A stretch of 64,000 nucleotides of DNA from Alphaproteobacteria bacterium (GTDB lineage: Bacteria > Pseudomonadota > Alphaproteobacteria > SP197). Where the stretch lies: positions 1,882,832 through 1,946,831 of the forward strand of contig OZ243917.1 in assembly GCA_965213815.1 (NCBI GenBank), read 5' to 3'. The position numbers and the translations under genes were made by a program. Shown here piece after piece: positions 5,639 through 10,090 of this stretch. Position 1 is the stretch's first letter, and every line of letters starts with the position of its first letter. Below the pieces are notes generated by a model. It saw only the letters and a program-made list of their open reading frames with translations. It did no database searches and was not told where the DNA came from.

Positions 5639-6388
5639 TCATGTTGTCAGGGGCAGGGTCTGGCCCTGCCGGGCGAGGGCGGCGCCGGGGGCGAGACGCT
5701 GCAGCGCCTCTTCGCGTATGGCGAGGTCGTCATCCGAAAGACCCGGGGGGTGATCTGTGATCACCAGTCGCCTGGCGGGTGAGTTGCGCGCGATGAGGTC
5801 CATGCTGTCGCCGGCGCCGCCGGCGATCAGCAGGCCGGCACCGCGGGCGAAGTCGCTGATCACGTCCGCGTCGTCATGGCAGGTCATGCCCGCCGCCCAG
5901 GCGAGCGACCAGTCATCGCCGTCGAAACGGTACGCCGTTCCAGGCATCGTCCCGCCGAGGGCCATGGTGGTGACCGTGAGACCTGGAGCGAGCACAACGG
6001 GTGTGCCCGCCTCAAGGTCATGGAACGTGACGGTGGCGTTGAAGATATCGGGGGAGACAGGGAACACGGGATCGGACATCAGCCGCCGGAGTTCCGATCT
6101 GACGACCCCACCGGCGCTGTAGAGCGTGAAGCGGTTGTCGGCCGAAAAGGCCGGGGCGAAGAACGGGATTCCGATGGTGCGAACGACGGTGGGCCGGCTG
6201 AAGAAGACATGCCCCTCCAGGGGGCCCTTGCCGAGCAGCGACAGTCCGCAATCGCGCATGCCGGAGCCGGCATCGAGAATCAGCAGCGTGTCGCCCGCGG
6301 CGACAGCGATACACGTCGAGTGACCGCCGAATGTCCGGGTCGCCGGCCCGTCCTGGGGAGCGGAGCGGACGCCGTGGAAGGTCACCAC
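5639..6388 (-). CDS. MBL-fold metallo-hydrolase (start uncertain)
   Basis: …VTFHGVRS…GGHSTCIAVAAGDTLLILDAGSG… beta-lactamase-fold N-terminus. The ORF's 5' extension overlaps the UGSC gene, so a GTG near 6388 is the likely start. Confidence 0.5.
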   Translation of the reverse strand: MVTFHGVRSAPQDGPATRTFGGHSTCIAVAAGDTLLILDAGSGMRDCGLSLLGKGPLEGHVFFSRPTVVRTIGIPFFAPAFSADNRFTLYSAGGVVRSELRRLMSDPVFPVSPDIFNATVTFHDLEAGTPVVLAPGLTVTTMALGGTMPGTAYRFDGDDWSLAWAAGMTCHDDADVISDFARGAGLLIAGGAGDSMDLIARNSPARRLVITDHPPGLSDDDLAIREEALQRLAPGAALARQGQTLPLTT

Positions 6389-6410
6389 CGGCCCGCTGGC
6401 CGGCTGCCGG

Positions 6411-6929
6411 TCAGGTTCGGGTGAGGGCGCCAACGACGGCGTCGACGATGTCTTCGGCGCGGCCACGCAGTTCAGCCTCGTTCAGGGGCTGAACCGGATG
6501 ACGGACATACACCACGGCCGGGTCAAAGCCATGAAGGCCGCTCCACGACGCGACCCCGCTTGCGAATTCCTCGGATACCAGCGCCACTGCCGGCGTTTCC
6601 ATGCGATCGATGTCCAGCATGTCCTGCAGACTGCACGACGTACAGGAACCTCAATCGGCAAGACCTTCAACCACGGCATCGCACTCGGCGGTGACCCGGT
6701 CGATCACCTCCGGGGGCGCCGGCTTGGTGAATGTCGGCTTGGCGTAGCGACCGGTGCGGATACCGCGCTCGCCAAGCAGCCTTTCAAGGTGATCGAGAAC
6801 GACATCGCCTTGGCGTTTGCCGATGTCGAGCAGACCGACGGTGAGACCCTCGAGGGACCGGTGTCCGGCCACACGCTGGCGCCCCGATGTGGCCCGCGCC
6901 ACGGTGGGATCAAGAAGAATCGTGGTCAA
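6411..6929 (-). CDS. UGSC-family selenoprotein; the in-frame TGA at 6651-6653 is read as selenocysteine
   Basis: Two ORFs (6651..6980 and 6411..6620) lie in the same frame, separated only by a TGA. The codons after it give G-S-C-T-S-C-S, forming the U-G-S-C motif. A TTG start at 6929 overlaps the upstream gene's TGA (TTGA). An AAGGGAGGTG Shine-Dalgarno sits 5 nt upstream. Confidence 0.7.
6590..6650 (-). ncRNA. candidate bacterial SECIS element immediately 3' of the Sec-UGA
   Basis: The mRNA after the UGA reads GGUUCCUGUACGUCGUGCAGUCUGCAGGACAUGCUGGACAUCGAUCGCAUGG. It contains short inverted repeats (CCUG…CAGG; CAUGC…GCAUG) that could form the required hairpin. No folding was done. Confidence 0.3.
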
Positions 6930-8272
6930 GGCTCCACCTCCCTTGTGACGGGTTGGCTCCCCCTGGGGCCGCTTCCCCATCCCTGGATGATAGTGGAAAA
7001 GAGTCCGGCATGGCTACCGGCGCGTGTGACGAGAAGATCGCCGGGCTCCAGCATGGGCGTGGCATCATGAAGGGCGGCTTCGACTCGCGCCCGGTTCCAG
7101 CCTGATTCCCGGAAGATGCGCCAGAACTCGCCGGCGATGACCAGCAGAGCCCCGTTGCCACCCGGGCACATCGCCTCGAGTGATCGTGCCAGGCTGGCCA
7201 CGAGATCCTCCGCCGTACGCGCTCTGTCGTCGTCCATGATCGTGGTGCCACAGAACCCGAAGACGGTGACAGCCGACTGTCCCTCGCCCCGTCCCCTTGA
7301 GGCGGCCAGGGACTGCCAGAGCGGGTCACTCTCGTCCTCGGCAAAACACAGGCCGTGCTTGCCGGGGTGGCCCAGGGTCGAGCGATCGACGCCCCCCGGC
7401 CGGGCGCCGCCTGCATTCATGGCGATGAGGACAAGCGCGCGTGCAATGGTGGCGTTGGCCCGGGTCCCGTGGCCGAGGGCGTTGGTTCCGCTGTTGAGAC
7501 CGATCCGCCGGGCGATGGGTCCGTTGACGATGACGGCGACACCCGCCCCCATGGTGGTCGACAACAGACCCTGCCAGGCGAAGTCGGGATCGAGCGCCGC
7601 GTCCAGCGCGGCCAGCACCACGGGAAAATACGCGGGACGGCACCCTGCCATGACCGCGTTGATGGCGGCTTTCTCCACCGTCAGTTCCGCCCCCGCCGGA
7701 GGAATCGAGCCCAGGACATGATTGTGCGCCAGGGTGCATTCGCGCAGCATGGCGAGGACGCGCCCCGGCGTCGGCGGCACCACGGGAAGGCCATCGGACC
7801 ATCCGCGGACGTCCATGATCTCGAAGGAATCTTCGGGAAACCGCACGGTGAGGGTCGCGGCATCGAGACCGGTTTCGCCGTGGCGCGCCCTGAGTTCCTC
7901 TGCCCAGCCCGCTTCCTCGCTCAGGGACCCGCATCCCGGTCGTTCGTCCGGCAGACCGGGGCCAAGGTCGTCAAGGCCGGCAAGAGAGCACCACTCCTGC
8001 CTCGACCAGCCGATAGTCCGCGCCGTCTCCACGCCGTCGGTGAAGCGCACCAGCGTTGGCACGATGGAGACGGCGAGGCGATAAGAGACCTCAAGGTCGC
8101 GGTCATCGCGAACCTGCAGGCGTTCGGGAAAGTCGGGGTTGTCCTGCGAGTAGATGGCGGCCATGACGCCGCGTGCCTCGAGTTCCGCGGCCACCGGCGC
8201 AATCAGCCGGCAAGTCGGGCAGTCCTCGCGAAGAACCAGGACAAGGCCGTCTTCGGGAATATCACTCGACAT
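6926..8272 (-). CDS. thioredoxin-fold (CPTC) domain fused to a ~330-aa uncharacterised C-terminal domain
   Basis: 448 aa. N-terminal …VLREDCPTCRLIAPV… is a thioredoxin-like CxxC. The rest has no motif I recognise. The stop overlaps the TTG start of the UGSC selenoprotein gene. Confidence 0.6.
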   Translation of the reverse strand: MSSDIPEDGLVLVLREDCPTCRLIAPVAAELEARGVMAAIYSQDNPDFPERLQVRDDRDLEVSYRLAVSIVPTLVRFTDGVETARTIGWSRQEWCSLAGLDDLGPGLPDERPGCGSLSEEAGWAEELRARHGETGLDAATLTVRFPEDSFEIMDVRGWSDGLPVVPPTPGRVLAMLRECTLAHNHVLGSIPPAGAELTVEKAAINAVMAGCRPAYFPVVLAALDAALDPDFAWQGLLSTTMGAGVAVIVNGPIARRIGLNSGTNALGHGTRANATIARALVLIAMNAGGARPGGVDRSTLGHPGKHGLCFAEDESDPLWQSLAASRGRGEGQSAVTVFGFCGTTIMDDDRARTAEDLVASLARSLEAMCPGGNGALLVIAGEFWRIFRESGWNRARVEAALHDATPMLEPGDLLVTRAGSHAGLFSTIIQGWGSGPRGSQPVTREVEP

Positions 8273-8328: not shown

Positions 8329-8679
8329 ATGAGCGAAATCCAGCGTTTGCAACCGGGTGAACTCTACAGCGGGGCCGTCATCCATGGCGACACGGTCTGG
8401 CTCTCCGGCAAGGTGGCTTCCGATTCCACGGGCGATGTCCGCCAGCAGACCCGGGATATCCTGGACGAGATCGACTCCACGCTCGAGGCATGCGGCACGT
8501 CACGATCACGGCTTCTCTCGGTGCAGATCTGGCTTGCCGACATCGCCGACTGGGCAGCCATGAACGAGGTCTACACCGCCTGGGTCGATCCCGGCAACAA
8601 ACCGTGCCGCGCCACGGTCGAGGCGGCCCTCGCACATCCCGACCTGCTGGTGGAAATCATGTGCGTGGCGGCCCGATAG
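8329..8679 (+). CDS. ridA: RidA/YjgF-family reactive-intermediate deaminase
   Basis: MSEIQRL… and …ARATVEAALAHPDLLVEIMCVA C-terminus typical of RidA. Internal ATG with GAGGG Shine-Dalgarno. Confidence 0.85.
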   Translation: MSEIQRLQPGELYSGAVIHGDTVWLSGKVASDSTGDVRQQTRDILDEIDSTLEACGTSRSRLLSVQIWLADIADWAAMNEVYTAWVDPGNKPCRATVEAALAHPDLLVEIMCVAAR

Positions 8680-8680
8680 A

Positions 8681-9418
8681 TCAGCGGCACGCCGTCGCTC
8701 CCCCGTCGATGGAGAGAAGCGCTCCGGTCATGAACTTCTGATCGGGATCGGCGAGGAAGCAGATGGCGTCGGCAATCTCGTCCGGCGAGGCGATGGTCTT
8801 CATCGGCGAGAACTCGGCAATGCCGCGCAGGGTTTCCGCATCATCGCCGGCGCCGAGCATATCGGTCATGACCGCTCCCGGACACACCGCATTGACCCTG
8901 ATGGCGGGCGCAAGATCGTGGGCGAGGGCCCGCGTCATGTTCACGACCGCCCCCTTGGAGGTGCAGTAGAGAGCACTTTCGTGATTGCCTGAGAGGCCGG
9001 ATTCCGATGCCGTCATGACGATGGTCCCGTTGTTGCGGCGCAAGGCCGGGATCGCCGCCTGGCTGCAGAAGAAGCAGCCCTTGACGTTGATGTCCATCAG
9101 CCAGGAGAAGGTGTCGTCACTCACCTCCTCGACAGGCCCCCCGACATAGACTCCGGCGTTGTTGACGAGAACATCGAGACCGCCCAGCCCGTTGATTGCC
9201 GCATTGACAACCTCGTGGCAGGCGCCGCCGCTGCCGAGGTCGCCGGGCGCAGCGACCAGGCCCTCACCGCCGAGGCCGGCGATGGCGGCTGCGACATCGT
9301 CGGCCCTGCGACCGTTGATGGCAACGCGGGCACCCCGTGTCAGGAAGGCTCGCGCCGTGGCGAGGCCGATACCCCTTGTCGAACCGGTGACGAGGACGCG
9401 TTTTCCTTTGAAAGTCAT
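8681..9418 (-). CDS. SDR-family oxidoreductase
   Basis: N-terminal Rossmann motif VLVTGSTRGIG, an NNAG motif and a Y-x3-K catalytic region (YCTSKGAV). Confidence 0.85.
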   Translation of the reverse strand: MTFKGKRVLVTGSTRGIGLATARAFLTRGARVAINGRRADDVAAAIAGLGGEGLVAAPGDLGSGGACHEVVNAAINGLGGLDVLVNNAGVYVGGPVEEVSDDTFSWLMDINVKGCFFCSQAAIPALRRNNGTIVMTASESGLSGNHESALYCTSKGAVVNMTRALAHDLAPAIRVNAVCPGAVMTDMLGAGDDAETLRGIAEFSPMKTIASPDEIADAICFLADPDQKFMTGALLSIDGGATACR

Positions 9419-9981
9419 GTCTGTGCCTCCAGCTGTTGCCGCCAGGCGTCAAGTTCGTGGACGTACCATGCGGCGTTCTTGCGGATACCGTCGATCTCAT
9501 CCGCATGGAGGTCGCGCAGCTTTTTTGCCGGAACGCCGCCCCACAGTTCCCCGCTCGGCACCACCTTGCCGGGCGCCACCAGGGCACCGGCAGCGACCTG
9601 GCTCTCCCGTTCGAGCCGGGCTCCGTCGAGCACGATGGCGCCGGAACCCACCAGGGTGTCGTCTTCCAGGGTACAGGCGTGCAGATGGACCATGTGACCG
9701 ATCGTCACGCCGCGGCCGATGATGGTCGGAATCTCGACGGAAACATGGACGACGCACCCGTCCTGGATGTTGGTGCCGGCGCCGATGCGCACAGGCCCGT
9801 CGTCGCCGCGGATCACGGCATTGAACCAGGCACTGGCACCCGCTTCCATCATCACATCACCGATGATGGCCGCTCCGGGAAGAACGAGGCCTCTCTTGTC
9901 GATGGTCGGCCACACGCCTTGCCAGGGCATCACGTGCGCCCGGGGGAAGACGCACGAGCGGTAGCGATCCGCCATCGTCAT
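9415..9981 (-). CDS. gamma-class carbonic anhydrase / hexapeptide-repeat (YrdA/PaaY) protein
   Basis: Left-handed beta-helix hexapeptide repeats (…IGAGTNIQDGCVVH…IGRGVTIGHMVHLH…). Stop overlaps the SDR start. Confidence 0.85.
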   Translation of the reverse strand: MTMADRYRSCVFPRAHVMPWQGVWPTIDKRGLVLPGAAIIGDVMMEAGASAWFNAVIRGDDGPVRIGAGTNIQDGCVVHVSVEIPTIIGRGVTIGHMVHLHACTLEDDTLVGSGAIVLDGARLERESQVAAGALVAPGKVVPSGELWGGVPAKKLRDLHADEIDGIRKNAAWYVHELDAWRQQLEAQT

Positions 9982-10015: not shown

Positions 10016-10090
10016 TGGTGGGCGCGGCTGGGTTCGAACCAGCGACCCCTGCCGTGTGAAGACAGTGCTCTTCCGCTGAGCTACGCGCCC
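10016..10090 (-). tRNA. tRNA-Val (anticodon CAC)
   Basis: Reverse complement reads GGGCGCGUAGCUCAGCGGAAGAGCACUGUCUUCACACGGCAGGGGUCGCUGGUUCGAACCCAGCCGCGCCCACCA. It has a 7-bp acceptor stem, a D-arm, a CUGUC/GGCAG anticodon stem with loop UUCACAC, a GGUUCGAAUCC-type T-loop and an encoded CCA. Confidence 0.9.

Follow-up and report, generated by a model that had tools for sequence, protein, structure and literature searches.

A thioredoxin-fused protein encoded in overlap with a UGSC-family selenoprotein in an alphaproteobacterial genome

The window analysed here (the whole stretch of 64,000 nucleotides, taken from contig OZ243917.1 of an Alphaproteobacteria bacterium) encodes on its minus strand a selenoprotein of the UGSC family and, immediately upstream and overlapping it by four nucleotides, a 448-aa protein. 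In this upstream protein a thioredoxin-fold domain is fused to a large conserved domain, termed domain X in this work, and the fusion is accordingly called Trx-X. Trx-X or X and UGSC were found to be near-obligately linked across many phyla, and X and UGSC also occur as single fused proteins in both orders. The two genes probably constitute one operon and a coupled pair, encoding an obligate two-subunit thiol/selenol redox system that is fed by thioredoxin. With X and thioredoxin as its partners, UGSC would pass from being a 20-year-old orphan to being part of a defined and testable three-part system. The features of the locus are as follows, with UGSC residues numbered from the TTG start:

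6926..8272, minus strand: Trx-X fusion gene, 448 aa; ATG start at 8272-8270, TGA stop at 6928-6926 (open reading frame (ORF) list and translation)
7973..8260, minus strand: thioredoxin-fold domain (predicted), residues 5-100; CPTC codons at 8221-8210, cis-Pro-type P72
7829..7972, minus strand: fusion-specific linker, residues 101-148; invariant RPGCGS, C114 codon at 7933-7931
6929..7828, minus strand: domain X, residues 149-448; C211 codon at 7642-7640, C309 codon at 7348-7346, motifs given in the text
6935..6944, minus strand: Shine-Dalgarno (SD) sequence AAGGGAGGTG within the last Trx-X codons (T-R-E-V), from the sequence
6926..6929, minus strand: TTGA, the Trx-X stop overlapping the UGSC start, a translational coupling signature, from the sequence
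6411..6929, minus strand: UGSC-family selenoprotein gene, 172 aa; TTG start at 6929-6927, TGA stop at 6413-6411 (translation, PF24696)
6651..6653, minus strand: TGA predicted to be read as selenocysteine (Sec), U93 of the U-G-S-C-T-S-C motif (translation)
6608..6653, minus strand: hairpin of the selenocysteine insertion sequence (SECIS) type, beginning at the UGA; G-U-containing apical loop 22-24 nt downstream

Linkage and fusion of domain X with UGSC

Homologues of Trx-X number more than 7,800 in a collection of 5.8 billion proteins, the best named relatives being encoded by metagenome-assembled genomes of Alphaproteobacteria and Rhodospirillales (61-63% identity). A scan with one genome per species returned at least 597 loci, which belong to Alpha-, Beta-, Gamma- and Deltaproteobacteria, Actinomycetota, Chloroflexota, Acidobacteriota, Nitrospirales and others, and 80 of these were kept for counts. 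A UGSC gene was identified directly downstream of Trx-X, on the same strand, at 76 of the 80. Two of the four loci without a UGSC call end at a contig edge, one of these showing the first 33 residues of UGSC; of the other two, the first shows a transposase-like gene behind Trx-X and the second has no UGSC. At locus L023 (5443-6800), Trx-X is followed by a 142-aa ORF and by a 310-aa ORF on the opposite strand that is transposase-like by eye, which suggests that the selenoprotein gene was lost to insertion there.

The same linkage was seen from the side of the selenoprotein. A DNA-level scan of metagenomes based on UGSC returned 80 loci, and Trx-X or X is encoded directly upstream at 70 of the 71 that have at least 150 nt of upstream sequence (9 of the remaining 10 loci had less than 140 nt). 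The initial annotation, made from the sequence alone, had treated the two genes as a unit whose conservation in other genomes could be checked, and co-occurrence proved to be near-obligate both ways. Among the 160 loci taken together (80 species and 80 metagenome loci), no third conserved gene was identified beside the pair; the most frequent neighbour occurs at 24 of the 160 and is lineage-specific, and the idea of a conserved third gene was dropped for this reason. In a few metagenome loci (L151, L152 and L158) a Sec-containing UGSC is paired with an X protein that has no thioredoxin domain. The conserved core is therefore X together with UGSC, with thioredoxin as an add-on that some lineages lack.

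An exhaustive profile search gave 7,331 clusters (50% identity) at E <= 1e-3, and 2,172 at E <= 1e-30. The top 150 cluster representatives were assigned to architecture classes with local profiles:

X alone (fragments included): 82/150 representatives
Trx-X: 39/150 representatives
UGSC-X: 14/150 representatives
X-UGSC: 3/150 representatives
Tandem X-X or X-X-X: 11/150 representatives
Trx-X-X-X: 1/150 representatives, a 370-aa sequence with split domain hits

Single proteins that combine X with UGSC exist in either order, with Sec or cysteine (Cys) at the motif. Cys-motif UGSC-X fusions are found as full-length ORFs (P0191, P0249 and P0264). Eight of ten representatives of approximately 415-450 aa start with the post-Sec part of UGSC, which indicates Sec-containing UGSC-X fusions that gene callers have truncated to an internal Met after the UGA. 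Tandem X-X proteins reach approximately 715 aa in some bacteria (P0142 and P0153).

Unfused forms of the system were sought on plasmids with the stand-alone X protein P0156, which retrieved 24 records. In almost all of the 13 annotated contexts inspected, X is paired with UGSC. Where a thioredoxin-less X accompanies a Cys-type UGSC, thioredoxin reductase (TrxR) genes adjoin the pair in 5 of these 13 contexts. The arrangements include:

Arthrobacter sp. ERGS1:01: trxB-trxA-X-UGSC; canonical TrxA (PF00085, E 2e-29), with a 4-nt overlap with X
Roseovarius: X-UGSC-trxB
Variovorax SRS16: trxB, a solute-binding protein (SBP) of the tripartite tricarboxylate transporter (TTT) family, a short-chain dehydrogenase/reductase (SDR), X, UGSC
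V. boronicumulans: TrxR-like flavoprotein (best NCBIfam match TIGR01292, E 8e-47) adjoining a UGSC-X fusion
Haloterrigena: TrxR-like flavoprotein (best NCBIfam match TIGR01292, E 1e-68) adjoining a UGSC-X pair
Halorientalis and Halalkalicoccus: X-UGSC-X
Paracoccus ferrooxidans: Sec UGSC split in the annotation into two short ORFs and followed by X; selB nearby

The trxB-trxA-X-UGSC arrangement of Arthrobacter is the unfused form of the fusion in the window. Thioredoxin would be supplied by fusion in some genomes and by a neighbouring gene in others, and presumably in trans in the rest. The neighbours of the unfused relatives comprise tripartite ATP-independent periplasmic (TRAP), TTT and major facilitator superfamily (MFS) transporters, CaiB/BaiF CoA-transferases, LysR regulators, DUF6282 and aconitase X.

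Several of the plasmid loci show further variation. Two X paralogues flank a Cys-type UGSC on haloarchaeal plasmids (L161, 3361-6023; L176, 3279-5978). The UGSC of the Arthrobacter plasmid (L165, 6042-6857; 271 aa, Cys form) possesses a C-terminal NifU-like domain (PF01106, E 4e-6). Plasmids of Vibrio europaeus (L167, 4386-6071) and Sporomusa termitida (L168, 4311-6035) encode UGSC-like-X fusions with the motif M-G-T-S, which is devoid of redox residues; each fusion gene has genes for aconitase X, DUF126 and a LysR regulator as neighbours.

The gene junction and the selenocysteine codon

The initial annotation had described the TGA stop of the 448-aa gene as overlapping a TTG start (TTGA, 6926-6929), with an SD sequence 5 nt before the TTG and inside the upstream coding sequence. 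Both match the sequence, AAGGGAGGTG lying at 6944-6935 and being separated from the TTG of the UGSC gene by the 5-nt spacer GAGCC. An overlap of the form NTGA is present at 38 of the 76 species loci, in many phyla. At 37 of these 38 an SD core is found at -18 to -4, where AAGGAG or AGGGAG is encoded by a T(K/R/Q)E(I/V) tail of Trx-X. This tail is kept at 31 of the 38 overlapping loci as against 4 of the 31 loci with genes at least 10 nt apart (Fisher p 8e-9, uncorrected for relatedness), and loci with separated genes have the SD sequence in the spacer instead. Close relatives of the window show TTGA, TTGA and ATGA at the same junction position, the Trx-X of the ATGA relative being 69% identical, and independent gene calls in two relatives begin the first UGSC fragment at the 4-nt-overlapping start. 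The choice of TTG as the UGSC start is borne out by these overlaps, relatives and gene calls, and the TTG start and coupling are well supported at the level of sequence comparison. The invariant D7-P8 motif of UGSC lies downstream of the TTG. A scan for promoters and terminators at the locus gave nothing exceeding shuffle expectation.

TTG is a weak start codon and 4-nt overlaps are common between co-directional bacterial genes; an in-frame ATG is also present 51 nt upstream, at 6980. It could thus be argued that the two genes are adjacent by chance or that the start was mis-called, the TTGA overlap being an accident of a GC-rich genome. The ATG at 6980, however, falls within the invariant G-W codons of the other frame, the N-terminal extension that it would add has no counterpart at loci with separated genes, and it was rejected as the UGSC start. 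When this is set beside the ATGA found at the same position in the relative with a 69%-identical Trx-X, the near-obligate linkage in both search directions in many phyla and the fusion of X and UGSC in both orders, such an explanation becomes exceedingly improbable, and chance adjacency is excluded by the co-occurrence and fusion data.

The product of the downstream gene belongs to the UGSC family. Scored with Cys substituted for Sec, it matches Pfam PF24696 with an E-value of 5e-39 (134.6 bits, cut-off 25; profile 2-171 of 172, the alignment spanning residues 5-170). It also matches the whole of NCBIfam model NF041046 with 118.8 bits, slightly below the equivalog cut-off of 125. The reading frame possesses exactly one in-frame TGA, in the context LAD-U-GSCTSC, and D-U-G-S-C is invariant among UGSC proteins. 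The aligned codon is TGA at 74 of the 76 species loci and at all 80 metagenome loci (154/156) and TGC in the remaining two.

The SECIS-type hairpin extends over 46 nt from the UGA, with a folding energy of -22.8 kcal/mol (z -2.1), and it folds likewise in essentially all homologues. When a 19-pair structure was examined on 36 sequences, 88% of cells pair compared with 30-43% in slid-partner controls, and compensatory changes were identified at 4 of the pairs. In a shuffle test the observed values were reached by no shuffle on four of five measures, and by 38 of 500 shuffles on the fifth (further pair types). Codons T97-D103 (ACG TCG TGC AGT NTG CAY GAC) make up the upper stem, and this partly accounts for the strong conservation of CTSCSVHD in Sec forms. 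At the position of the His codon (CAY) of most homologues the window has a Gln codon (CAG), resulting in a G-G mismatch in the stem. Judged from the codon alignment and the hairpin, the TGA of the window is very probably a real selenocysteine codon. A search of Rfam around the locus gave no family match. A GrdB-like UxxCxxC motif in UGSC was considered and rejected, as Trp takes the place of C99 in many UGSC proteins of the Cys type and in some of the Sec type; the constraint placed on codons 97-103 by the SECIS stem weakens this reading also.

No selA, selB, selD or tRNA-Sec was identified in the window, whose sole tRNA is tRNA-Val (CAC) at 10016-10090 on the minus strand, and no trxA or trxB was found there. 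The Sec decoding machinery would therefore lie elsewhere in the genome. selA and/or selB adjoin the Trx-X/UGSC pair in approximately 15 of the 160 loci (L028, L044, L047, L050, L053, L056, L067, L073 and others), and UGSC may thus be a principal client of the machinery in those genomes. Public gene calls split Sec UGSC at the UGA into ORFs of approximately 92 and 63-80 aa, both matching PF24696 (for example L169, 6422-6940; L170, 6380-6898; L164, 4396-4965).

Trx-X and a putative thiol/selenol redox system

The upstream gene had been credited in the initial annotation with a thioredoxin-like N-terminus followed by a large unrecognised domain, and both parts of this description hold. The motif C18-P-T-C21 is present (REDCPTCRL), and a profile of 30 homologues matches thioredoxins of the PDB with an E-value of 8e-5. 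In this alignment C18xxC21 falls on CGPC and V71-P72-T73 on the (I)PT cis-proline motif, both of which are invariant. The AlphaFold model of Trx-X has a predicted local distance difference test score (pLDDT) above 90 across the region, and the N-terminal domain is predicted from it to be a thioredoxin fold. It gave no match to Pfam (PF00085) at E <= 0.01 and scored 17.7 bits against TIGR01068, below the cut-off of 96.8; it is a divergent thioredoxin-like domain and not canonical TrxA. The linker that follows is missing from stand-alone X proteins, and model confidence is low there.

Domain X consists of approximately 300 aa, of which about 50 are near-invariant, and contains the motifs GW(S/T)DGLPVVPPT, AINAVMAGC (containing C211), RANATI(A/G)RA and PGK..(L)CFAEDE (containing C309). 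C211 directly precedes a predicted helix in the AlphaFold model. C18, C21, C114 and C211 are invariant, being present in 100-102 of 102 full-length Trx-X homologues from many phyla (C114 in 102/102), and C309 occurs in 98/102. Scans of Pfam and NCBIfam gave no model for X with the window protein, its stand-alone relatives or all 30 members of the alignment (E 10), and a profile search of PDB sequences matched nothing outside the thioredoxin part. Foldseek matches were not significant, with template modelling (TM) scores of 0.16-0.28 (class I fumarate hydratases: E 3.5e-3, TM 0.26). On present evidence X is a structural orphan. Trx-X proteins are labelled in public records only as 'thioredoxin family protein' or 'hypothetical protein'. 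UGSC, for its part, showed no sequence similarity to peroxiredoxin, glutathione peroxidase (GPx) or thioredoxin models, and a profile search of PDB sequences with it gave no credible match.

In the proposed system, domain X (residues 149-448) would be the catalytic or substrate-binding part, with the invariant Cys211 forming part of the same active site or relay. UGSC would join it in a physical complex and supply the selenocysteine/cysteine redox pair, U93-x-x-C96, as the redox centre. Once oxidised, this centre would be re-reduced by C18-P-T-C21 of the fused thioredoxin, for which the invariant linker residue Cys114 may serve as a shuttle, and the electrons would originate from the cell's NADPH-thioredoxin reductase. 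During synthesis, ribosomes finishing Trx-X would restart on the weak TTG by means of the 4-nt TTGA overlap and the SD sequence in the last codons; the output of the slowly decoded Sec protein would in this way be tied to that of its partner. The UGA at 6653-6651 would be recoded by the hairpin after it. A dedicated redox relay pairing a CxxC with a UxxC protein, and possibly used by the large uncharacterised domain, had already been suggested for the window, and this suggestion is supported by the fusions in two orders, the trxB-trxA-X-UGSC operon, the TrxR-type neighbours and the invariant cysteines.

Several observations weigh against such a system. X has no recognisable catalytic fold, which makes 'enzyme' a guess. 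In the Vibrio and Sporomusa fusions M-G-T-S replaces U/C-G-S-C, so that at least one branch of the family does not rely on the UGSC redox pair. The loci with Sec UGSC and a thioredoxin-less X (L151, L152 and L158) show that the fused thioredoxin is not essential to the core function, and no trxB was found near any of the 160 Trx-fused loci. Since half of the loci have no overlap, coupling is frequent but not required. The neighbours of the unfused relatives hint weakly at a small organic acid as substrate, and the gene families from which this is drawn are common ones in these genomes.

A more specific proposal can be put forward tentatively: X may represent an undescribed enzyme fold which, with UGSC and a dedicated thioredoxin, forms a new Sec-dependent reductase acting on a small molecule, comparable in its logic to glycine or proline reductase though not related to them by sequence. 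Such a reductase would be widespread in aerobic aquatic and soil bacteria, with a Cys form in haloarchaea.

A general antioxidant role is an unlikely alternative to the two-subunit redox system. UGSC would then be peroxidase-like or protein-disulfide-reducing, with Trx-X as its reductase or scaffold and with no specific small-molecule substrate. The hosts are mostly aerobic aquatic and soil bacteria, and the Trx-fused module moves without conserved metabolic neighbours, as might be expected of such a function; published surveys class UGSC with redox-motif selenoproteins of unknown function (PMC2398784, PMC13188914). However, a domain of approximately 300 aa in which about 50 positions are near-invariant, and which is always either linked to UGSC or fused with it, exceeds the needs of a reductase, and the unfused relatives are located in clusters of catabolic character that include transporters, CoA-transferases and LysR regulators. 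The lack of sequence similarity between UGSC and the peroxiredoxin, GPx and thioredoxin models also argues against it.

The conserved Cys/Sec positions, four across the two proteins, allow a different interpretation, namely that a metal ion or iron-sulphur (Fe-S) cluster is bound at the subunit interface by two residues of X (Cys211 and Cys309) and two of UGSC (U93 and C96). Thioredoxin would keep these ligands reduced or aid assembly, and X would be a hydro-lyase-type or other metal-dependent enzyme. The NifU-like domain of the Arthrobacter UGSC (PF01106, E 4e-6) and the aconitase X genes adjoining the Vibrio and Sporomusa fusions are in keeping with this, as is the presence of Fe-S class I fumarate hydratases among the weak fold matches of X (E 3.5e-3, TM 0.26), although these matches, at TM 0.16-0.28, are not significant. 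C309, however, is not universal in the wider X family, being Val in P0249, and the Vibrio and Sporomusa fusions are without either UGSC cysteine. Selenocysteine is not known to be an Fe-S ligand, and the occurrence of dedicated trxA and trxB genes is more in keeping with redox cycling. A metal site is for these reasons judged quite unlikely, and the thioredoxin-fed redox system is the more probable interpretation.

Flanking genes and comparison with known systems

The gene downstream of UGSC (5639-6466, minus strand; 275 aa by longest ORF) overlaps or abuts the UGSC stop and has no Pfam match. Its product is a homologue of metallo-beta-lactamase-fold proteins in which the HxHxDH metal motif has been lost, with FFSRPTVVRTIG there instead. 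Homologues with an intact motif adjoin Trx-X, often divergently upstream, at 22 of approximately 170 loci in several phyla. Divergently upstream of Trx-X in the window is a RidA-family gene (8329-8679, plus strand), and beyond it are an SDR gene (8681-9418, minus strand) and a gamma-carbonic-anhydrase (gamma-CA)-like hexapeptide-repeat gene (9415-9981, minus strand). This RidA-SDR-gamma-CA-like block recurs next to the pair in three close relatives (L081, L169 and L170), and a gamma-CA-like gene is located within 4 kb of Trx-X at 14 loci, many of them of Acidimicrobiia.

The UGSC family is reported to have been described by Zhang and Gladyshev in 2007/2008 and first noted in Hyphomonas neptunium. 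The gene of the window is a full-length member of it (PF24696, NF041046), with D-U-G-S-C, an in-frame UGA and a SECIS hairpin. A thioredoxin-like fold has been suggested for the family in print, whereas no thioredoxin-type model matches UGSC by sequence here. In the papers searched, up to 2026, UGSC is presented as a stand-alone family of unknown function (PMC2398784, PMC13188914). The present data show that it is almost never alone, being accompanied by, or joined in one protein with, a large conserved domain for which neither a family model nor a structural relative was found, and that this unit is linked to thioredoxin and thioredoxin reductase. Two annotation problems are also brought to light, the selenoprotein being split into two ORFs and its partner being labelled generically. 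Paracoccus, Roseovarius, Arthrobacter, Variovorax and haloarchaea are among the hosts available in culture.

Fusion selenoproteins designated 'UGSC/Unknown_1' were described in 2008 from Global Ocean Sampling data (PMC2398784, Fig. S1A). The 'Unknown_1' domain named there very probably corresponds to X, and UGSC-X fusions were also found here in many cluster representatives, with Sec or Cys. The window differs from these fusions in that X and UGSC are encoded by separate, translationally coupled genes whose order is reversed (X before UGSC), and in that X has an N-terminal thioredoxin domain, a feature not mentioned in PMC2398784. In the literature searched, no description was found of Trx-X as a partner, of the near-obligate operon, of the signature of coupling or of the link to thioredoxin reductase, and an earlier description elsewhere is possible.

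In the glycine/sarcosine/betaine and D-proline reductase systems, Grd and Prd (GrdA/GrdB/GrdE, PrdA/PrdB), a selenoprotein of the UxxC type cooperates with a partner that binds the substrate, and TrxA/TrxB encoded in the same cluster recycle the selenoprotein. The likeness lies in the thioredoxin that is fused to X in the window and in the relatives with trxB-trxA-X-UGSC, X-UGSC-trxB or TrxR-like genes. The Pfam models of Grd/Prd, however, gave no match to UGSC and X members even at E 10, there are no pyruvoyl-forming subunit and no GrdC/D-like genes here, and the hosts are mainly aerobes, whereas those of Grd/Prd are amino-acid-fermenting anaerobes. The resemblance is one of functional analogy only and not of membership.

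Enzymes fused to their own thioredoxin are known, such as PilB of Neisseria (Trx-MsrA-MsrB) and AhpF with its N-terminal domain. Like these, Trx-X possesses a CxxC domain fused to its presumed reduction target, with unfused versions elsewhere that have separate trx genes adjoining. It differs from PilB and AhpF in that X, to which the thioredoxin is fused, is not a member of any characterised family and in that a second, Sec-containing subunit is always present.

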